Shown: positions 4,328 through 23,400 of the stretch, in pieces
Numbering within the stretch: the first letter of the stretch is position 1
Layout of the letters: each line of letters starts with the position of its first letter
Source of the DNA: Escherichia coli
Lineage (GTDB): Bacteria; Pseudomonadota; Gammaproteobacteria; Enterobacterales; Enterobacteriaceae
Length of the DNA stretch: 64,000 bases
Strand: one strand, 5' to 3'
Assembly (NCBI RefSeq): GCF_024298765.1
Contig: NZ_CP101210.1
The notes under the pieces: generated by a model
Told to the model about the DNA's origin: nothing
Seen by the model: the letters and a program-made list of their open reading frames with translations, nothing else
The model's database searches: none
Made by a program: the position numbers and the translations under genes

Positions 4328-5249
4328 TGTGCAGCCGCCACGCTAATTGTTCGAAATAACGTTGCTGATCTTGCCGTGCTTTCAGTGCTTCTTCCAGTGA
4401 ACACTGGACAAAATGAATCGGCTGACCGAGCGGAATTTGCGCCAGATGGTACATATCAGCCTCGATGATACAGGCAATACGCGGATAACCACCGGTGGTC
4501 TGTGCGTCGTTCATCAACACAATCGGCTGCCCGTTATGTGGCACCTGCACCACGCCCGGTAACAAACCGTGAGATAACAGTTCGCGATCGGTGGTGCGTT
4601 TTAAAATTTGCCCCTGTAAGCGATAGCCCATTCGGTTACTTTGCGAGCTAAGCTGCCAGGGCGAACGCCAGAATGCATCCTGCGAGGCGCGATCGAACTC
4701 ATGATATTCCGGCCCCGGCAAGGCGCGAATGCGGTTGCCCCACAGCAGCTGTTTAACGCCCTGCGCTTCCATAAAATCACGCTTCGATTTGCCAATCGGG
4801 AGTCGGTCACCATCCTTTAGTAAACGGCCTTCCAGCCCGCCAATCCCCACTTTGAGATCGGTGCTGCATGACCCCATTACCGGCGGAACATCAATACCAC
4901 CCGCGACCGCCAGATAACTGCGCATCCCGTGCTGCGGGCGTTTAAGCGTTAAACGCTGACCTGCTTTCATCGGCAATCGCCAGCCGGTCCAGACGGCGTT
5001 ATCATCCAGCCGCGCTTCGCAACCGGCCCCCGTCAGAGCAAACCACCCATCAGTTTCGAACTCAACCGTTAACTGACCGAGCGTGATCTCCAGCGCGGGG
5101 GCATTGGCGTCATTACCCACCAGTAGGTTAGCAATGCGTAACGCGGGCATATCCAGTGCGCCGCAGTGGCTGATACCCGACTGGCGAAAACCGTGACGAC
5201 CGCCATCCTGCACAGTGGTATACATGCCCGCACGAATAATCTTCAGCAT
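4317..5249 (-). CDS. pxpC: 5-oxoprolinase subunit C
   Basis: 310 aa ORF overlapping neighbours by a few nt (operon). Confidence 0.8.
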
Positions 5250-5899
5250 ACTCCCTCCTTCTGCGGTACAAAGCGCACGCTGTCTCCCGGACGTAATAAG
5301 ATGGGTTCGTCACGCGCCGGATCAAACAGGCTGAGTGAGGTATGACCAATCAACTGCCAGCCACCCGGCGTTGCCAGCGGATAAACACCGGTCTGCGGCC
5401 CGCCGATCCCGACAGAACCTGCCGGAACGAGCAAGCGCGGTTCAGCGCGCCGTGGCGTGTGTAGTTGTTCCGGCAAACTCCCGAGATACGGGAAGCCCGG
5501 TTGAAAACCTAAAAACCAGACCACGTATTCCACGGAGGAGTGCAATTCAACAACCTGTTTTTCGCTCAACCCACAATGCGCCGCGACCACCGCCAAATCC
5601 GGTCCGCCTGCGCCACCGTAAACCACCGGAATTTCAATAAAACGAGACTCCGGCTCCAGCGCCTCACTCTCCTCCCACCAGCGTTGCAAACGCTCTATGG
5701 CATCCAGCGCCAGCGACTCAGGATTACGTAAAATCACCGTGATATTGTTCATGCCAGGAATGGCTTCAACCACATTCGGCATATCCACCAGACGCTGCGC
5801 CAGTCGCCAGATCCGTTTCTGGCTAGCCAGCGTCACCGGCGGTTCCAGCTCCAGCACTACCGCCGTTTCACCTATCAGATAACAACGCGCTCGTTGCAC
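5243..5899 (-). CDS. pxpB: 5-oxoprolinase subunit B
   Basis: 218 aa ORF, first gene of cluster. Confidence 0.8.
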
Positions 5900-13086: not shown

Positions 13087-14388
13087 ACATGGGAACCCAG
13101 GGAAAGATTACGAAAGCCCGCTCCCAGCAAGGACTGACGCCAGATAGTTTCTGTCCATGGCTGCTTTTCGCATCTTACGTCTTAACCCTGCCTTGAATAC
13201 CTTATCATTCGTCAAAATATTAATAGCGATGTGCCGTATCCCTGAAAATAATTCTGCTGCATTTCCTCTTCTTATTTTGCAGTCGTCTTCATTCATTACC
13301 ACGTCCAGACGCCAGTGCAGCTTATTCTCCACGTGCCAGTGGTTTCGGATTGCTGTGGCGAACTTCTCTGCGGTTAAATCAGCAGAACTGATATAATATC
13401 TGACCGTCATTTCTGGCTCTTTCTTTTGTTCTGCTATTATTGACCGAAAGGAGACTGCCACGCATAATTTCTTCAGACCTTTCCATTCAAACGTGAAATC
13501 AATAAGTTCATCAGGGACATCGCAAACAATATGAAGACGGATTTCTTCTCTGCCGTGACTTTTTTCACTAATTGCGTAACTGTCATGCTCTGGATTATTT
13601 AATTCTTTCAGTGGGAATTTTTCCTCAAAGGCTTTATTAAGCCGCCCCTGATTTCCTTTTACAGCGAATAAATAATCACCGCCCTGTTTTTGTATCTTCT
13701 CTGCGATATCTTTCTGGCACCCCATCGCATCAGTTGTGATAATTTTTCCTTTAATATCCAACATGTTAAGAAGTTCAGGGATAGCTGTGATCTCATTGGA
13801 TTTCTCATCCGTCCTGATCTGTCCGATGACCAGACTGTGCATTGTTGAGAACGCACTAATGACATGAATCGCTCCCCTGCGGCGACTCTTGTCATAAGAA
13901 TGCCGGAGCGTTTTTCCATCAATTGCAATAACGTCTTTATCATCTGAAGAATGGCAGTCACGCATCCAGTTAATAAAGCACTCGTGAAATTTTGCAGGAC
14001 TGATACAGGATACAACTCTGGCAATGGTATCGTGAACAGGAATACCATTTTCAAAATCACCATATTGCTTCAAAAAATCGAGATGTGTTTCCCCAAAATC
14101 CTCTATATCTTCCCAGCCTTCTGCACAAGAAATAACGGCACAAATAGTCAACAGTAGAATATCCGACAATTTATGTTCCACTTTCCAGGCTTGTCTGTAA
14201 TCGGGGATAATAGAAATATGTTCCATCAATTTTTTAAGTTCCATTTTGTTCTCCTTAATTATGTAAGGAGTATTTGACCATGTATACGCAATAAAAAACA
14301 GCTTCAGGTAATGAGGAATATCTCAATTTTTAAACATAAAATGCGAATTATTTAGTACAAAAAAGCAGCGTTACGTGATCTTTCCCTG
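13087..14388 (-). mobile_element. ISAs1-family insertion sequence (H-repeat), apparently intact
   Basis: About 1.3 kb; imperfect terminal inverted repeats; single 378-aa transposase ORF. Confidence 0.8.
13108..14244 (-). CDS. ISAs1-family transposase (H-repeat-associated protein)
   Basis: 378 aa, [32 protein letters not shown]..., matches Rhs-associated H-rpt proteins. Confidence 0.9.
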
Positions 14389-14395
14389 GTTAATC

Positions 14396-14725
14396 ATGGC
14401 TGAACACGATATTACGCCAGAAATCACCATTTCCAAAACACAGCGCCGCTATAAAGTCGGCTATGTCAGAGCCCGCCACATAAACAGCAAAACCTACATG
14501 ACCACGTACTACTCACGACACCCCAGCCTGAACCTCAAGGGCGACTGGCTGAAAGAGGCCGGATTTGATACCGGGCGGGGTGTCACGGTGAAGATTTCGG
14601 AGGGGTGCCTGACCATCATCGCTGACAGTGACGAGGTGCAGGAACTGCGGGAGGAACTTTATCAGGTTAAACAGGTGGTTAAGGGGATGCGGAGCGGGAT
14701 GTTTAGTGTGCTGAACGATAATTAA
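14396..14725 (+). CDS. SymE-family (type I toxin-like, AbrB-fold) protein
   Basis: 109 aa; LKGDWLKEAGFDTGRGVTVKISEGCLTIIA resembles the SymE core [30 protein letters not shown] (from memory); start trimmed from ORF 14375. Confidence 0.7.
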   Translation: MAEHDITPEITISKTQRRYKVGYVRARHINSKTYMTTYYSRHPSLNLKGDWLKEAGFDTGRGVTVKISEGCLTIIADSDEVQELREELYQVKQVVKGMRSGMFSVLNDN

Positions 14726-14776: not shown

Positions 14777-15145
14777 TTATTCAGGAAATTTTCTATTTTT
14801 ATATGATGACCATAAGTGAGTGATCGACCAAGAGTTTTCCTTTCCGAGTACAAAACTTTTGGAGATTATCTCAATATCATCAGATATACGCGAAGATATT
14901 TCAGAATTATTAATCACCCTGAATGAGTATTTAAATGCCTTTTCTCGCAAGGAATCAATAAACTCAATATCATCATCCTGAAAACTTTCCTTATCTAATG
15001 AATTAAACTCACTCATCCAGCAATCATCAAACTCCGGTTCATCTCTTGAGTCTAATGCACTATCAACATTTAATGATTTAAGAAAATCAAAAAATGACGG
15101 GGTGGATAAACAGTTATCAATTTCAATTAGCTTATTATTAATCAT
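14777..15145 (-). CDS. putative immunity protein of orphan Rhs toxin
   Basis: Acidic ~122 aa protein; ATG overlaps toxin stop in TGATG arrangement. Confidence 0.55.
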   Translation of the reverse strand: MINNKLIEIDNCLSTPSFFDFLKSLNVDSALDSRDEPEFDDCWMSEFNSLDKESFQDDDIEFIDSLREKAFKYSFRVINNSEISSRISDDIEIISKSFVLGKENSWSITHLWSSYKNRKFPE

Positions 15146-15790
15146 CACATTAACCCTTGTCCTTTGAGCCAAACCTCTATTAAATCAACAGCCTTGGATG
15201 GTGTCACATTAGTACCTAGCGTATAAGTTCCATTTGGAGATTTAACATCAACTCTGATGTCATCTAATTTTGAATACGCTTTTCTGTAAGCATCAAATAA
15301 CTCTTTATCCGAACCAAGGAAATCACCTTGTCTTGGACCTATCACATCTCGTTCCGCATGATGTAAACGCCAGTGATTATGTTCTGGATTTTCTCCTCTA
15401 GGGAATAATGTTGGGCGAGTTTTATCAGATCGGGAAACTTCAAACGGACGTCCTTTAGATTTACGAACCGCAGGAACATGATGTCCAGATTCACTCACGC
15501 CCATACACTTCTTCGTTAATCCAAGGGGATCGATCCAGCTTAACGGATTCGGTGCATAAGCATACAGGTTTAACCCGCCTCTTAGCCCTATCGGGTCCGT
15601 TACCATGAACCGCCCGACATCCGGATCATAGTACCTGTGCAGATTGTAATGCAGCCCCGTTTCCCTGTCGAGGTACTGTCCCTGGTAGCGCAGGTTCTGC
15701 TCCACCCCGCCGTGGTCCTTCTCCTGTATCGTGTTACCCCAGACCTGATACCCCGTCTCCCACACGATTTTCCCGTCACTGTCCGTCATC
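15145..15790 (-). pseudogene. orphan rhs C-terminal fragment: ~90 core codons + DPLGL + ~120-aa toxin tip with GHH signature
   Basis: ORF 15145..15825; core part near-identical to main rhs (MTDSDGKIVWETGYQVWGN...DPIGLRGGLNLYAYAPNPLSWIDPLGL); 5' end cut by ISAs1. Confidence 0.65.
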
Positions 15791-15792
15791 TC

Positions 15793-17084
15793 CAGGGCAA
15801 GATTACGAAAGCCCGCACCCCGCAAGGACTGACGCCAGATAGTTTCTGTCCATGGCTGCTTTTCGCATCTTACGTCTTAACCCTGCCTTGAATACCTTAT
15901 CATTCGTCAAAATATTAATAGCGATGTGCCGTATCCCTGAAAATAATTCTGCTGCATTTCCTCTTCTTATTTTGCAGTCGTCTTCATTCATTACCACGTC
16001 CAGACGCCAGTGCAGCTTATTCTCCACGTGCCAGTGATTTCGGATCGCTGTGGCGAACTTTTCTGCGGTTAAATCAGCAGAACTGATATAATATCTGACC
16101 GTCATTTCTGGCTCTTTCTTTTGTTCTGCTATTATGGACCGAAAGGAGACTGCCACGCATAATTTCTTCAGTCCTTTCCATTCAAACGTGAAATCAATAA
16201 GTTCATCAGGGACATCACAAACAATATGAAGACGGGTTTCTTCTCTGCCGTGACTCTTTTCACTAATTGAGTAACTGTCGTGCTCTGGATTATTTAATTC
16301 TTTCAGCGGAAATTTTTCCTCAAAGGCTTTATTAAGCCGCCACCTGATTTCCTTTTACAGCGAATAAATAATCACCTCCCTGTTTTTGTATCTTCTCTGC
16401 AATATCTTTCTGGCAACTCATCGCATCAGTTGTGATGATTTTTCCTTTAATATCCAGCATGTTAAGAAGTTCAGGGATAGCTGTAATTTCATTGGATTTC
16501 TCATCCGTCCTGATCTGTCCGATGACCAGACTGTGCATTGTTGAGAACGCACTAATGACATGAATCGCTCCCCTGCGGCGACTCTTGTCATAAGAATGCC
16601 GGAGCGTTTTTCCATCAATTGCAATAACGTCTTTATCATCTGAAGAATGGCAGTCACGCATCCAGTTAATAAAGCACTCGTGAAATTTTGCAGGACTGAT
16701 ACAGGATACAACTCTGGCAATGGTATCGTGAACAGGAATACCATTTTCAAAATCACCATATTGCTTCAAAAAATCGAGATGTGTTTCCCCAAAATCCTCT
16801 ATATCTTCCCAGCCTTCTGCACCAGAAATAACGGCACAAATAGTCAACAGTAGAATATCCGACAATTTATGTTCCACTTTCCAGGCTTGTCTGTAATCGG
16901 GGACAATAGAAATATGTTCCATCAATTTTTTAAGTTCCATTTTGTTCTCCTTAATTATGTAAGGAGTATTTGATCATGTATAAGCAATAAAAAACAGCTT
17001 TAGGTAATGAGGAATATCTCAAATCTTAAACATAAAATGCCAATTATTTAGTACAAAAAAGTAGCGTTACGTGATCTTTCCCTA
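15793..17084 (-). mobile_element. ISAs1-family copy, transposase frameshifted
   Basis: Same ends as the copy at 13087..14388; ORF split into 16332..16940 and 15803..16156; 1-bp difference (gccgccacctgattt vs gccgcccctgattt). Confidence 0.75.
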
Positions 17085-17089
17085 AAACG

Positions 17090-17555
17090 CAGACCCAGTT
17101 GTGCATAGTACACATGGTACGCAACAGCCTGCGGTTCGTGACGTGGAAAGACTATAAAGCGGTAACCCGTGACCTGAAACAGGTTTACCGCGCGGCCACG
17201 GAAGAAGGCGTGTTGCAGGCGCTGGATGCGTTCGGGAAGGAATGGGATGCACGGTACCCGCAGATAAGTCGCAGCTGGCGGGCAAACTGACCGAATGTTG
17301 CCACCTTCTTCGTGTACCCGGAGGCGATCCGAAAGGTTATCTACACCACTAACGCAATCGAATCGCTGAATAGCGTCATCAGACATGCGATAAAGAAAAG
17401 GAAAGTGTTCCCGACAGATGAATCGGTGAAAAAAGTGGTGTGGCTGGCTATCCAGTCAGCCTCACAGAAATGGACGATGCCACTTCAGGACTAGCGGATA
17501 GCCATGAGTCGCTTTATTATCGAGTTCGGTGACCGCCTTGACGGTCACTTCTGAG
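17090..17555 (+). pseudogene. IS256-family (Mutator-type) transposase, 3' remnant with frameshift
   Basis: ORFs 17099..17290 and 17312..17494 carry ...VHMVRNSLRFVTWKDYKAV... and ...IYTTNAIESLNSVIRHAIKKRKVFPTDESVKKVVWLAIQSASQKWTMP... Confidence 0.6.
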
Positions 17556-17619: not shown

Positions 17620-17946
17620 TTAATCACCCGGCTTCTCCCAACATTTTATCTTTTCTATTTCTCTCTCAATATCATCCATATCATCATCTCCAAGATCGGT
17701 ATTAAAATTTTCAGTAATAACCCTTCTTATTTCAGCCAACCGATGTGTAATATTTTTATCATCAATAAATTTAGTGGTTTCTTTAAAGTAAGAATTCAAC
17801 AATTTATCATCAATAACGTTCTGCTCTATACCATTGAAATAATACCTTGCAATATTCTTAAGTGATATCAATATGTACTCTACCTCACTTAGAATATAAA
17901 GGGCATCCTTCCCGGGTATATTAATTACATCATTGTTTTTATTCAT
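17620..17946 (-). CDS. putative immunity protein of orphan Rhs toxin
   Basis: 108 aa ORF starting 1 nt after the orphan toxin stop. Confidence 0.55.
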   Translation of the reverse strand: MNKNNDVINIPGKDALYILSEVEYILISLKNIARYYFNGIEQNVIDDKLLNSYFKETTKFIDDKNITHRLAEIRRVITENFNTDLGDDDMDDIEREIEKIKCWEKPGD

Positions 17947-17947
17947 A

Positions 17948-19735
17948 TTATTTACGCCGAGTTATTTTTGCATTATCAGAAAGAACAATATCACCTTTCA
18001 CAGTCAATTCATCTATATGGTATCGAGGGTTTGTTACCCACTCTAATTGCTCGTTAGGTACATCTGTTTCCACATAATCTCTACCTTTCCCACGACCTAT
18101 TTGATATTTCGCCTCTATGTCTACTTGACTGAGTGGTTTTTTATTCGCAGGTTCCAAATATACACGACCGTTATCATGCGCCTTAATTATCCCACTTTCA
18201 GCAATCGCATTTGAACCTTTACGATTAGTATAATGCCGCACACGAGTAGTTCCATTACAGAGCTCTTTTTTTAATCCGAGTGGATCAATATATTTCAGCG
18301 GATTAGGCGCATAAGCATATAAGTTCAACCCACCCGCCAGCCCTATCGGATCCGTTACAATGAACCGCCCGACATCCGGATCATAGTACCTGTGCAGATT
18401 GTAATGCAGCCCTGTTTCCCTGTCGAGGTACTGTCCCTGGTAGCGCAGGTTCTGCTCCACCCTGCCGTGGTCCTTCTCCTGTATCGTGTTACCCCAGACC
18501 TGATACCCCGTCTCCCACACGATTTTCCCGTCACTGTCCGTCATCTCTTCCGGCGCGCCGTTCACATCCGTGTGAAAATACAGTATCCGGTTCGGGCCCT
18601 CTTTGCCCGCCTTATCCACCCGCGCCAGCGGTTCATAACTCCCCGGGTCCCTGTAGATGTACAGGCTGTCTGTTCCCTCCGGCCTGCTCTCCTGCGCCAG
18701 CCGCATTCCGTCCCATAAAAATGCCGTCCGGTTGTACGGTTTACCGTCAGGGCTGATGTGCTGTTTTTCCGTCCGCCTCCCCAGCGCATCGTACACATAC
18801 CGGTACGTTCCCCGCGCTGTCGTCACTTCCACCATCCGGTGTTCCGCATCATAACGGTAACTCTGCGTGCCGCTCCGCCCCTCCTTTTCCACCGCACGGC
18901 CAAATTCGTCGTAACGGTAGTGCACACCACGGTAAGACATCAGCCGGTTGAACGGCACCACGCTGTTTTCTGCCGTGGCCCTTTCCCCCGCGCGCCGCCC
19001 CAGCAGGTTTCCCGCCGCGTCGTACTGCCAGCTCGCCAGATACCCCTCATCCTCCGAGCGGCACGCCGTGATGCGCCCCGTGGGGTCGTAGAAGTAATCC
19101 GTTTCCCCCCGCCGGCTGTGCCGCGTCTTCAGCAGTTCATCCTCGCCACTGTAGCTGTACTGCCGGTCCGTGAACGTCTCCGGTACCACCCCGCGCATCC
19201 CGCTGTATGTCTCCCTGCGCTTCAGCCGCCCGGCGGGGTCGTAAAGCTGCCGCGTGCTCAGTCGCCCCTGACTTCTGAGCACTTCACGGTGCAGGGCGTC
19301 ACGAGTGAACTCGCTGATGACCTCCCGGTCCAGATTTATCTGCTGGAGATGGCCGCTGCCGTAGTACAGATGACGCTGCGTTCTGCCGTCCGGAAAGGTG
19401 GTGGCTGTCCGGTTGCTGAGTTCATCGTACTGATGGGTCAGGACGCCCTGCGCCGTCTCCTCAGTCAGCATCCGCCCCAGTCTGTCGTAACTGAAACGGA
19501 TAATCTCCGGTGCGTCTGTTTCCCCGGCATCCGACCGTCGGCGGCGGATTTCCAGTAACTGGTCTGCCGCATCATGGACGTATTCCGTACGGCTATCGGC
19601 TGTCTCCTTTGCCGTGAGCCGGCCCGCCGCATCACGTGCCAGCCGGTGGCGGATTTCACCGCCCCGGTCCCCGGTGAACACCACTTCCGTGACCGCGTTC
19701 AGCGCGTTGTAGCGGTACGTCTGGCGGCAGCCGTC
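17948..19735 (-). pseudogene. orphan rhs fragment: ~490 core codons + ~105-aa alternative toxin tip, 5'-truncated
   Basis: ORF 17948..19753; homology to main rhs starts at ...CRQTYRYNALNAV; 18392-19735 is near-identical to 20910-22253. Confidence 0.75.
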
Positions 19736-19764
19736 GTGCTGCCAGCGCAGCATCTGCCCAACCG

Positions 19765-19978
19765 CAGCGACACGCCGGTGATCAAAATCAGCGCCAAATG
19801 GCTGAGAGAAGCGGGATTTGAGATCGGCACGGGCGTTACCGTGAAGATCTCGGAAGGCTGCCTGATCCTGCTTGCAGATAACAACGGAGTACAGGAACTG
19901 CGCAGGGAACTTTATCAGGTTAAACAGTCTGTTAAGGGGATGCGGAACGGGATGTTTAGTATGCTGAACGATAATTAA
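19765..19978 (+). pseudogene. SymE-family gene, C-terminal fragment
   Basis: ...IKISAKWLREAGFEIGTGVTVKISEGCLILLADNNGVQELRRELYQVKQSVKGMRNGMFSMLNDN homologous to 14396..14725; N-terminus lost at the orphan rhs junction. Confidence 0.6.
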
Positions 19979-19984
19979 ATAATA

Positions 19985-20020
19985 AAAAGCCGGGAAGATT
20001 TAATTTCTTACCCGGCTTTT
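19985..20020. terminator. bidirectional hairpin terminator
   Basis: aaaagccgggaagatttaatttcttacccggctttt. Confidence 0.5.
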
Positions 20021-20043: not shown

Positions 20044-20424
20044 CTAAATCAATCTTTTTTTTAATTCCCTTATTTCAGGAGTTAATGCAAAACTGTCTTC
20101 TAAAGATTCGTCATCCAAGGCCCAGTAATTAATAAGATCTATATGATTTTTATAATTATCAAGCAGAGTGTTGAGTGCTTTTACAATAACTTTATCTGAA
20201 GGAGGTACTCCAGAAGATAATAAATCATTACAGACATCAAGGGCTAAAGTCATTAATTCATTCTTCCCTTTTTGTGAGTAGCCATTATTTAAATATGCAG
20301 CAATATATTTACTTAACCACTCTTTAGTTCGATATTTTTCAGGCAGTTCATAAGCCCAATCTTGTGTAAACTTATCACTCACTGGTACACCAAGTTCACT
20401 ACAGATTTTATCTATTTCATTCAT
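20044..20424 (-). CDS. putative immunity protein of the main Rhs toxin
   Basis: 126 aa ORF 18 nt downstream of rhs stop; position-based call. Confidence 0.55.
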   Translation of the reverse strand: MNEIDKICSELGVPVSDKFTQDWAYELPEKYRTKEWLSKYIAAYLNNGYSQKGKNELMTLALDVCNDLLSSGVPPSDKVIVKALNTLLDNYKNHIDLINYWALDDESLEDSFALTPEIRELKKRLI

Positions 20425-20441
20425 ATATATCCTTCATTATT

Positions 20442-23400
20442 TTAGTTGTCGTGTGATGAATTGAATGGGAACGATGTACGTACAGAACCGTCGGGTTTTA
20501 CAACAACCCTTGCCATATCTGGAACTACCTCTGTCCCATCAGGTAAATAACCTCGACTTTTTATATTTGTAGGCAATGGCACATCATGCACACCTGGTCC
20601 TTTTTTGGCAACAGAAGCAATAAAATCAGCAGCAGAATTATCATCGAGATATTGTCCAACTTGATGACCTTTATTTCTGGCACGATCAATTAACTGATTT
20701 GGTTTCATTTTCTGTCCGTGTTCAGAAAAGGTGTGACCGTATGTAGGCTTACTTTTTGGATTTCCCCATTTGAAGTCAGATTTAGGACACAATCCAAGTG
20801 GGTCGATCCATGACAGTGGATTAGGTGCATACTGATATAAGTTTAACCCGCCTCTCAGCCCTATCGGGTCCGTTACCATGAACCGCCCGACATCCGGATC
20901 ATAGTACCTGTGCAGATTGTAATGCAGTCCCGTTTCCCTGTCGAGGTACTGTCCCTGGTAGCGCAGGTTCTGCGCCACCCCGCCGTGGTCCTTCTCCTGT
21001 ATCGTGTTACCCCAGACCTGATACCCCGTCTCCCACACGATTTTCCCGTCACTGTCCGTCATCTCTTCCGGCGCGCCGTTCACATCCGTGTGAAAATACA
21101 GTATCCGGTTCGGGCCCTCTTTGCCCGCCTTATCCACCCGCGCCAGCGGTTCATAACTCCCCGGGTCCCTGTAGATGTACAGGCTGTCTGTTCCCTCCGG
21201 CCTGCTCTCCTGCGCCAGCCGCATTCCGTCCCATAAAAATGCCGTCCGGTTGTACGGTTTACCGTCAGGGCTGATGTGCTGTTTTTCCGTCCGCCTCCCC
21301 AGCGCATCGTACACATACCGGTACGTTCCCCGCGCTGTCGTCACTTCCACCATCCGGTGTTCCGCATCATAACGGTAACTCTGCGTGCCGCTCCGCCCCT
21401 CCTTTTCCACCGCACGGCCAAATTCGTCGTAACGGTAGTGCACACCACGGTAAGACATCAGCCGGTTGAACGGCACCACGCTGTTTTCTGCCGTGGCCCT
21501 TTCCCCCGCGCGCCGCCCCAGCAGGTTTCCCGCCGCGTCGTACTGCCAGCTCGCCAGATACCCCTCATCCTCCGAGCGGCACGCCGTGATGCGCCCCGTG
21601 GGGTCGTAGAAGTAATCCGTTTCCCCCCGCCGGCTGTGCCGCGTCTTCAGCAGTTCATCCTCGCCACTGTAGCTGTACTGCCGGTCCGTGAACGTCTCCG
21701 GTACCACCCCGCGCATCCCGCTGTATGTCTCCCTGCGCTTCAGCCGCCCGGCGGGGTCGTAAAGCTGCCGCGTGCTCAGTCGCCCCTGACTTCTGAGCAC
21801 TTCACGGTGCAGGGCGTCACGAGTGAACTCGCTGATGACCTCCCGGTCCAGATTTATCTGCTGGAGATGGCCGCTGCCGTAGTACAGATGACGCTGCGTT
21901 CTGCCGTCCGGAAAGGTGGTGGCTGTCCGGTTGCTGAGTTCATCGTACTGATGGGTCAGGACGCCCTGCGCCGTCTCCTCAGTCAGCATCCGCCCCAGTC
22001 TGTCGTAACTGAAACGGATAATCTCCGGTGCGTCTGTTTCCCCGGCATCCGACCGTCGGCGGCGGATTTCCAGTAACTGGTCTGCCGCATCATGGACGTA
22101 TTCCGTACGGCTATCGGCTGTCTCCTTTGCCGTGAGCCGGCCCGCCGCATCACGTGCCAGCCGGTGGCGGATTTCACCGCCCCGGTCCCCGGTGAACACC
22201 ACTTCCGTGACCGCGTTCAGCGCGTTGTAGCGGTACGTCTGGCGGCAGCCGTCCGGATTTATCTGCTCCGCCAGACGGTCCAGCACGTCATGGCGGAACC
22301 GGTAGCTTTCTCCGTTCTCGTTTGTCAGCGTGACCAGACGCCCGTAAGCATCGTACCCGAACGCCGTCCTGCGCCCCGTCGCGTCTGTCCGGCTGCGCAC
22401 CCGGCCCTGCCCGTCCCGCTGCCAGCGCGTTATCCTCCCCATCGGGCTGGTGTACTTCACCAGCCTGCCCGCCGCGTCCGACTGGTAATTCACCGTGCGG
22501 CCGTCCGCCAGTATCACCTCCGTCAGGTGGCCGCTGTCGTCATACCCGTAGCGCGTGCTGTGGCTCTGCGCGTCTGTCATCCGTATCAGCCGCGTGCGTT
22601 CGTCGTAGAACCAGGCCGTCTGCGAGCCGGAACAGTCCGTGTGCCGCATGAGCTGCCCGTCTTCGTTCCACTGAAGGTATTTATTCCCCCCGCGCGCATC
22701 GGTTATCTGCACCACCTGGCCGTGGCGGTCATACTGATACCGGGTGTTCTGCTGCAGCGGGTCGGTCACCGCAAGAAGATTGCCGCGTTCATCGTACTCA
22801 CAGCACCAGCTGTTCCCCGCCGCGTCCACCTCCGTTTCCGGCTGGTGCCACACCGGGTGCCACTGTGTCTGTGCCACCCGCCCCAGCGGGTCGTGCGTCT
22901 CCGTGATATGCCCCTGCCGGTCATACACATAGCGCCATTTGCCGCCCTGCGCATCGGTCATTCCCAGTAACAGCCGTTCTTCGTCGCTCCAGCGGAACGT
23001 CGTCACCTGCCCGGCTTCGTCCTGGTACGCCGTCACCTGATTCTGCGCGTCCCACTGATGATAACGCGTGCGCCCCAGCCCGTCCGTCACGCACAGCCTG
23101 CGTGACGCCAGGCTCCACGCCAGCCGGTACTGTTCACCGCTGTCCGTGTGGTGCCCCGTCACCCGCCACGCTGCGTCATCCGGGCCTTCATACCAGCTCC
23201 ACTGGTAATAATACCCTTCGCCGCCCGGCTGGCGGTGCAGGGTCATGCAGTGGTTTTCGTCGTAAGCAAACTCGCGCAGCAGGTGTCCCGTGCTGTCGTA
23301 CACGCCGTTCAGGTCGCCGGCCTCGTCATAGCGGTAACGACGCAGCAGTAAAGGAGCCGTCTCAGGGAAATGCTGATAAATCTGTGTCACCCGCCGGGGA

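Follow-up and report, generated by a model that had tools for sequence, protein, structure and literature searches.

Organization of the rhs tip and the downstream gene

This study concerns the 3′ end of an rhs gene and the small gene that follows it in a 64,000-nucleotide stretch of Escherichia coli DNA (contig NZ_CP101210.1 of assembly GCF_024298765.1; hereafter, the window), which together constitute a putative toxin/immunity pair. Features of the window lie on the minus strand unless otherwise indicated. The main rhs gene (20442-25100) was present in the list of open reading frames (ORFs) as an uninterrupted ORF encoding 1552 amino acids. It occupies an rhsC-type E. coli locus, whose flanks in RefSeq are ybfA/kdpFABC and ybgA/phrB, and RefSeq names its product 'RHS repeat-associated core domain-containing protein'. 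From the N terminus to the C terminus, the protein consists of an AARxxDxxxH prePAAR-like motif, hydrophobic helices, a split PAAR domain, DUF6531, a YD-repeat shell, the RHS core, and a variable tip. When the N-terminal 451 residues were compared with Pfam, PAAR_motif (E-value 1.8e-5; residues 291-321, with a weak second half at residues 97-117) and DUF6531 (8.6e-17) were detected. The prePAAR-like motif reads AARQGDALLH, for which the prePAAR_I hidden Markov model (HMM) gave an E-value of only 2.1. The precomputed Pfam annotation of an identical 1552-amino-acid product lists RHS_repeat, TEN_YD-shell, and RHS (PF03527). The gene product thus belongs to the PAAR-Rhs class of type VI secretion system (T6SS) effectors, having a YD/RHS shell and core, a PxxxxDPxGL motif followed by a variable tip, and an N-terminal PAAR domain.

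The end of the Rhs core was read from the sequence as YAPNPLSWIDPLGL (20790-20831), which contains the PxxxxDPxGL demarcation/self-cleavage motif. The segment PNPLSWIDPLGL corresponds to 20825-20790 and includes the DPLGL codons (20804-20790), and the tip starts directly after it with CPKSDFKWGNPKSKPTYGHTFSEHGQKMKPNQLIDRARNKGHQVGQYLDD and finishes with SSHDN just before the rhs stop codon (20444-20442). The tip (20445-20789), a predicted divergent RNase A-like domain of the prokRNase A/EndoU superfamily, comprises 115 amino acids, residues 1438-1552 of the Rhs protein, and has an isoelectric point (pI) of 9.3. The first-pass annotation had given its length as about 117 residues because the upper limit used there, 20795, takes in the GL of DPLGL. 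Its reading of this segment as the main Rhs protein's variable toxin domain was supported. The GC content is 56-66% in the Rhs core versus 28-39% in the tip and the following ORF, with one switch at the DPLGL boundary, where the value drops to 38%, and a second near 19990, beyond that ORF.

The downstream ORF (20044-20424) starts 17 nucleotides past the rhs stop codon. A Shine-Dalgarno-like sequence, GAAGGA (20430-20435), can be recognized inside this gap, 5 nucleotides before the ATG. The 126-amino-acid product, labeled 'hypothetical protein' in RefSeq, is predicted to be all-alpha, has no signal peptide, and has a pI of 4.8, so that its charge is complementary to that of the tip. A GC-rich hairpin followed by a U-run (19985-20020) is located 24 nucleotides past the stop codon of this ORF. 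The folding energy of the hairpin was −18.9 kcal/mol (z-score −5.05), and none of 200 shuffled sequences folded as well. This structure probably serves as an intrinsic terminator, possibly a bidirectional one, which closes the rhs-immunity operon and faces a convergent symE-like gene. A simple terminator scan with an 8-nucleotide loop limit missed this hairpin because its apical part (an unpaired base, a 4-bp inner stem, and a 7-nucleotide loop) exceeds the limit, and it was recovered by folding.

The tip and the downstream ORF were both present exactly as first described. A 911-bp stretch spanning them was found with 100% identity in 44 complete E. coli genomes, of which many were derived from poultry, and 45 of the 5,426 complete genomes searched contained at least 80% of it. 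The length of the 126-codon ORF in DNA of approximately 31% GC, the conservation in 44 genomes, the co-occurrence of homologs described below, and the confident AlphaFold models (mean predicted local distance difference test [pLDDT] scores of 90.5 for the 126-amino-acid protein and 83 for the tip) indicate that the two are real genes and not chance ORFs.

A family of C-terminal domains related to the tip

A word-indexed search with the tip yielded 30 close relatives with 55-91% identity, most of them encoded by short ORFs of orphan-like appearance. An HMM search with the alignment of these relatives retrieved 559 cluster representatives at an E-value of ≤0.001, and 344 at ≤1e-10. In all 147 full-length matches among the proteins examined, the domain was C-terminal, lying at most 31 residues from the end of the protein and at most 6 residues from it in 140 of the 147. 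The carriers ranged from approximately 100 to 3,688 amino acids and included Rhs/YD proteins, PT-HINT proteins, and one Fil_haemagg_2 (two-partner-secretion type) protein. Such an extreme C-terminal position on varied carriers is a hallmark of polymorphic-toxin tips. On these sequence comparisons, the tip is the founding member of a large, unannotated family of predicted C-terminal toxin domains.

The tip and the downstream gene shared 77.5% DNA identity with an orphan cassette of Pectobacterium parmentieri over 20870-20056, the similarity starting approximately 80 nucleotides inside the core. This identity across both genes indicates that the pair moves as one cassette.

Relationship of the tip to RNase A-like toxins

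The tip has no nameable family at database thresholds, as had been noted from the sequence. Its best match in Pfam was RNAse_A_bac (PF18431) at a sub-threshold E-value of 0.13, and there was no match in NCBIfam. In a control search of NCBIfam, a bona fide Bacillus RNase A-like domain scored 5.5e-18, and the tip and two distant relatives scored nothing. A comparison with the PDB sequences gave nothing significant, the best E-value being 0.026 to a mitoribosomal protein. Among 79 diverse members of the tip family, RNAse_A_bac was one of the two leading weak Pfam families, with 8 members at an E-value of ≤0.1 and a best value of 4.9e-4. The tip does not qualify as a bacterial EndoU toxin (PF14436), either by an HMM match or by closest structural similarity.

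Several weak matches were rejected. The match of the first 45 residues of the tip to the kinetoplastid mitoribosomal protein mS71 (PDB E-values 0.026-0.08) was regarded as a chance similarity without structural or contextual support, and the Pfam match to MurB_C (0.18) was dismissed. DUF7269, with E-values of ≤0.1 in 15 members, was judged spurious because the match in member P0014 (0.0045) is only 18 residues long.

A profile-profile comparison was performed with RNase A-like domains as templates. A 28-amino-acid fragment of the CdiA-CT toxin of Yersinia kristensenii ATCC 33638 (hereafter, the Ykris enzyme; 5e3e; PF18431; 'prokRNase A') was taken from published mutagenesis primers, verified against 5e3e_B, and used for tblastn searches against plasmids. 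WP_000822712.1, which is contained in the original alignment of Batot et al., was recovered together with WXG100 and 'RNase A-like domain-containing' proteins of Bacillus, Pantoea, Ralstonia, Rhizobium, and Streptomyces. Nine bona fide RNase A-like domains were aligned by hand and compared by hhalign with a 79-sequence alignment of the tip family. The two aligned with a probability of 88.3% and an E-value of 2.9e-6 over 95 columns spanning the whole domain, at 12-17% identity of the tip to the RNase A-like toxins. The reversed template gave a probability of 0.1%, and 20 column-shuffled templates gave at most 1.8%. The earlier suggestion that the tip may belong to no known toxin family was thus largely overturned by this result, with its clean controls, and by the conservation of the catalytic signature described below.

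Structure prediction, which the first-pass annotation had proposed as a check, was carried out for both proteins. The AlphaFold model of the tip, built from only 18 fairly similar sequences, had pLDDT scores above 90 from residue 30 onward. Its top two Foldseek matches were 5e3e_D/B (probability 0.99, template modeling [TM] score 0.52; the rest, ≤0.25), and by two methods CdiA-CT of Y. kristensenii was the one outstanding structural neighbor. The next-best structural neighbors were also RNases. The tip as modeled therefore has an RNase A-like fold.

The residues on which the Ykris enzyme depends were found at equivalent positions of the tip. His19-Thr-Phe-Ser-Glu-His24 (codons 20718-20735), the predicted catalytic histidine pair in the context GHTFSEH, aligns with GHT(I/L)x(K/R)H, and its spacing of 5 is the same as that of H170/H175 in the Ykris enzyme, the counterparts of H19/H24 (PMC7297114, PMC5435912). 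Arg36 (20682-20684), the predicted transition-state-stabilizing residue, aligns with Arg186 in the hhalign comparison. The C-terminal strand motif T-x-[YF]-P, represented by Thr105-Ser-Phe107-Pro108 (20466-20477), aligns with Thr276-Gly-Tyr278-Pro of the Ykris enzyme and with (I/L)T(G/S/A)(Y/F)P of other RNase A-like members. These positions are highly conserved among the 147 family domains: H19 in 137, H24 in 145, Arg36 in 134 (Lys in a further 7), Thr105 in 128 (Ser in 15), Tyr or Phe at position 107 in 146, and Pro108 in all. In the Ykris enzyme, mutants of His175, Thr276, and Tyr278 lose activity, Arg186Ala reduces it, and Tyr278 is often Phe in homologs (PMC5435912). Mushegian et al. argue that H170/H175 is the true catalytic pair, the other conserved element being a C-terminal strand with an aromatic-Pro sequence (PMC7297114).

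The likeness to the Ykris system extends to the gene arrangement: in both, a C-terminal polymorphic-toxin domain with the His-x4-His, Arg, and Thr-x-Tyr/Phe-Pro motifs is encoded immediately upstream of a small, acidic, all-helical (here, predicted) immunity protein. The Ykris domain is part of CdiA and the tip is part of an E. coli PAAR-Rhs protein; domains of the Ykris family are already known on Rhs, type VII secretion system, and PT-HINT carriers. Unlike members of that family, the tip falls below the Pfam and NCBIfam thresholds, has one extra residue between His24 and Arg36, and belongs to a family with its own conserved WGNPKSxPTYG leader and GQW/Y-LDD motif. Residues W8, S13, G45-Q46, D49, and G85 are invariant in the tip family and lie outside the shared motifs. 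Other close systems are YxiD-CT/YxxD of Bacillus subtilis (9v8i) and the EndoU-type toxins/XendoU (2c1w, 5hkq). The sub-threshold Pfam match, the profile-profile comparison, the predicted fold, and the aligned functional residues converge on a distant RNase A-like nuclease as the most likely identity of the tip. Since no curated HMM accepts the tip and about 20 residues are missing from it, the tip is best placed in a putative unannotated sister clade of PF18431 within the RNase A-like/EndoU superfamily, and not in PF18431 in the strict sense.

The downstream gene product as a candidate immunity protein

The 126-amino-acid protein matched nothing in Pfam, NCBIfam, or the PDB sequences, and no described immunity family was matched by sequence or fold. 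NCBIfam matches to sigma-factor and FliH models had E-values of ≥0.07 against curated cut-offs of 180-259 bits and were rejected. The PDB sequence and profile matches to the CRISPR-associated APE2256 family (7pq6/7pq2/7pqa) and to Nrd1 were non-significant. A total of 27 relatives were found, none with a Pfam domain. Homologs with 24-77% identity were always located directly downstream of tip homologs in other phyla. In the orphan cassette of P. parmentieri, the toxin is 89% identical and the adjoining immunity protein is 68-70% identical; the corresponding values are 70% and 24% in a PT-HINT array of Paenibacillus, and 65% and 31% in a metagenomic stand-alone pair. The partner thus evolves more rapidly than the toxin, a pattern expected of toxin/immunity pairs. 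In addition, an uncalled ORF downstream of the Fil_haemagg_2 toxin P0175 (L023, approximately 5130-5520, plus strand) matched the immunity profile with an E-value of 5e-28. The position 17 nucleotides downstream of rhs and the co-occurrence conserved across phyla are in agreement with the initial designation of this ORF as the immunity gene. The protein is a candidate inhibitor of the tip and would represent an unannotated immunity family.

The possibility of an uncharacterized toxin/immunity family had been raised at the outset. It holds for the immunity protein, for which no family was found; it does not hold for the toxin, which shows RNase A-like homology at the profile level.

A short F-x-Q-D motif near the N terminus is common to the immunity family (FTQDW) and CdiI-type proteins (F-H/G-Q-D), and beyond this motif the protein is not detectably related to the CdiI type of the Ykris system. 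The motif region includes residues 20-23, TQDW (20356-20367), and Q21, W23, and E26 are invariant in the 126-amino-acid family. In the Ykris complex, Gln20 and Glu23 of CdiI contact the toxin. This resemblance is regarded as a lead only.

A distant toxin branch with QGQWLxN-type tips on Rhs and PT-HINT carriers (P0128, P0130, and P0184) is followed by a different protein of 170-175 amino acids. The genes of these proteins (L020, 5980-6507; L021, 2200-2712; L022, 6484-7005) encode mutually homologous products without a Pfam domain, which probably constitute another immunity family paired with this toxin fold. With this unrelated family downstream of the distant branch, the toxin clade would use at least two immunity families.

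Proposed action of the pair and alternative explanations

Given the gene anatomy, the remote homology and predicted fold, the motif conservation, and the co-occurrence described above, it is probable that the tip and the 126-amino-acid protein are a toxin/immunity pair in which a metal-independent RNase A-like endoribonuclease is neutralized by its acidic helical partner. What is established for Rhs effectors and for the Ykris enzyme suggests by analogy the RNase activity, the RNA target, the binding of the immunity protein, the self-cleavage, and the delivery by the T6SS. The Rhs shell would encapsulate the 115-residue tip, self-cleavage at PxxxxDPLGL would free it, and the PAAR domain would mount the Rhs protein on the T6SS spike. 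In the cytoplasm of a neighboring cell, the tip would be a metal-independent endoribonuclease belonging to the bacterial RNase A-like (prokRNase A/EndoU) superfamily, with His19 and His24 as the acid/base pair, Arg36 stabilizing the transition state, and the C-terminal Thr105-x-Phe107-Pro108 strand positioning the histidines. In the cytoplasm of the producer or a sibling, the co-transcribed acidic protein would bind and block the basic toxin, probably by lying over the active-site cleft in the manner of CdiI in the Ykris complex.

Several observations weigh against this interpretation. The homology of the tip rests on one profile-profile comparison and a predicted structure because no curated-family HMM reaches significance for it; the template alignment behind the hhalign result is small and hand-made; and PDB profile searches with the tip family did not find 5e3e. 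Between the catalytic motifs, the tip is about 20 residues shorter than the Ykris domain, with no counterpart of the alpha3/alpha4 segment. Residues 1-23 of the model, including His19, have pLDDT scores below 50, and the active-site geometry is therefore a prediction only. When the immunity family was compared with the CdiI proteins of RNase A-like toxins, hhalign gave a probability of 0.2%. Finally, neither an intact Eag (DUF1795) chaperone gene nor vgrG adjoins rhs in the identical RefSeq locus.

The low identity of the tip to RNase A-like toxins, the absence of the alpha3/alpha4 region, the invariant residues that the tip family has of its own, and its unrelated immunity proteins would also suit an RNase A/EndoU-like scaffold with another chemistry or substrate, for instance a highly specific tRNA or rRNA nuclease, a phosphodiesterase acting on nucleotides or second messengers, or a binding protein with no catalytic activity. 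This alternative is unlikely, however, as all four residue positions shown or argued to be important in the Ykris enzyme are conserved in the tip family and the next-best structural neighbors are RNases as well.

Delivery is the weakest step of the proposed action. A 66-codon remnant (25119-25319) lies directly upstream of rhs; RefSeq annotates it as DcrB-related with its N terminus missing, and it looks like a truncated Eag-type chaperone gene. This truncation and the lack of an adjacent vgrG cast doubt on the delivery of a prePAAR-type Rhs protein, although the chaperone and VgrG could be supplied in trans. The pair might accordingly be intact without serving as a delivered weapon in these strains, being instead an addiction-like toxin/antitoxin module or a reservoir cassette for rhs recombination. 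In line with such a role, no vgrG or other T6SS gene is adjacent, the region directly downstream holds insertion sequence (IS) elements and two orphan rhs tips whose core sequence is a perfect repeat, and Rhs elements of Salmonella reportedly act as type II toxin/antitoxin modules. On the other hand, the 1552-codon ORF is uninterrupted and encodes a PAAR domain and a complete shell, the stretch is 100% conserved in 44 genomes, and a chaperone and VgrG may come from elsewhere in the genome, outside the window. This explanation, which concerns the deployment of the pair and not the identity of the proteins, appears slightly less likely than the preceding one. That the tip belongs to a toxin family unrelated to anything characterized, its RNase A-like resemblance being a convergence or a modeling or alignment artifact, is very improbable, even with non-significant results in all curated HMM and PDB sequence searches and a model derived from just 18 fairly similar sequences.

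Novelty and implications of the toxin clade

A Rhs tip/immunity cassette with an RNase A-like fold is a known kind of system, and Batot et al. already listed Rhs carriers of RNase A-like toxin domains. What appears to be new, judging from the sequence searches, is a sizeable unannotated sister clade of the toxin domain, missed by Pfam PF18431 and by the NCBIfam model, together with an unannotated immunity family. A literature search within a searchable library found no paper describing this toxin clade or immunity family, and no specific description of a characterized RNase A-like pair of E. coli Rhs proteins or of the tip in Pectobacterium.

The pair of RNase A-like toxin and helical immunity protein proposed here provides a testable function with named catalytic residues for a tip that 45 of the 5,426 complete E. 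coli genomes searched were found to carry, with poultry or avian sources well represented among them. The same functional prediction extends to a family with several hundred unannotated toxin domains, carried by Rhs, PT-HINT, and hemagglutinin-type proteins. In a 2025 survey of plant pathogens, 69.6% of Rhs and contact-dependent growth inhibition toxin tips were of 'unknown function'. The finding would be no surprise to specialists, but the tip family well merits a Pfam entry of its own and offers a compact natural variant for probing bacterial RNase A-like catalysis.

We tentatively consider that the clade may be a minimal RNase A/EndoU branch of approximately 100 residues that kept the ancestral N-terminal histidine pair, lost alpha3/alpha4, and perhaps has its own RNA specificity, with at least two immunity families that are related neither to each other nor to CdiI. 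If this doubtful possibility were true, the clade would lend itself to testing the disputed two-histidine mechanism of prokaryotic RNase A-like enzymes and to studying how one toxin fold recruits unrelated inhibitors.

Neighboring cassettes in the window

Two orphan rhs fragments are located downstream of the main rhs gene, and a DPLGL-type core-end motif precedes the tip of each. The first (17948-19753) encodes 601 amino acids with a core that repeats that of the main rhs gene; its tip is assigned to Pfam Tox-ART-HYD1 (ADP-ribosyltransferase type) in an identical protein elsewhere. It is followed by a presumed immunity gene of 108 codons (17620-17946). The perfect core repeat makes this fragment a ready substrate for tip switching by recombination. 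The second, shorter orphan tip (15145-15825; 226 amino acids from an upstream TTG) has DPLGL followed by a histidine-rich tail, ...SGHHVPA...HNHWRLHHAERD..., and its end is overlapped by a 131-codon ORF (14777-15172). Other tip-immunity cassettes of E. coli and enterobacterial Rhs proteins, such as the orphan tips of this locus (of the Tox-ART-HYD1 type and, presumably, the HNH type), share with the main rhs gene the core, the PxxxxDPLGL boundary, and the low-GC tip and immunity architecture. Those tips are assigned to recognized Pfam toxin domains, whereas the 115-residue tip and its immunity protein carry none.

Transposase genes are interspersed between the orphan rhs modules at 13108-14244, at 15803-16940, and, on the plus strand, at 17099-17494. 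They comprise an ISAs1/ISEc1 gene that is intact, a copy that is disrupted, and part of a different transposase gene. Genes of SymE-family type I toxins occur twice in the window, at 19736-19978 and 14375-14725 (both on the plus strand), in each case convergent with and right after a tip/immunity cassette. A symE gene also follows the homologous cassette of P. parmentieri (L002, 4903-5127, minus strand), and the two symE genes have no DNA similarity.

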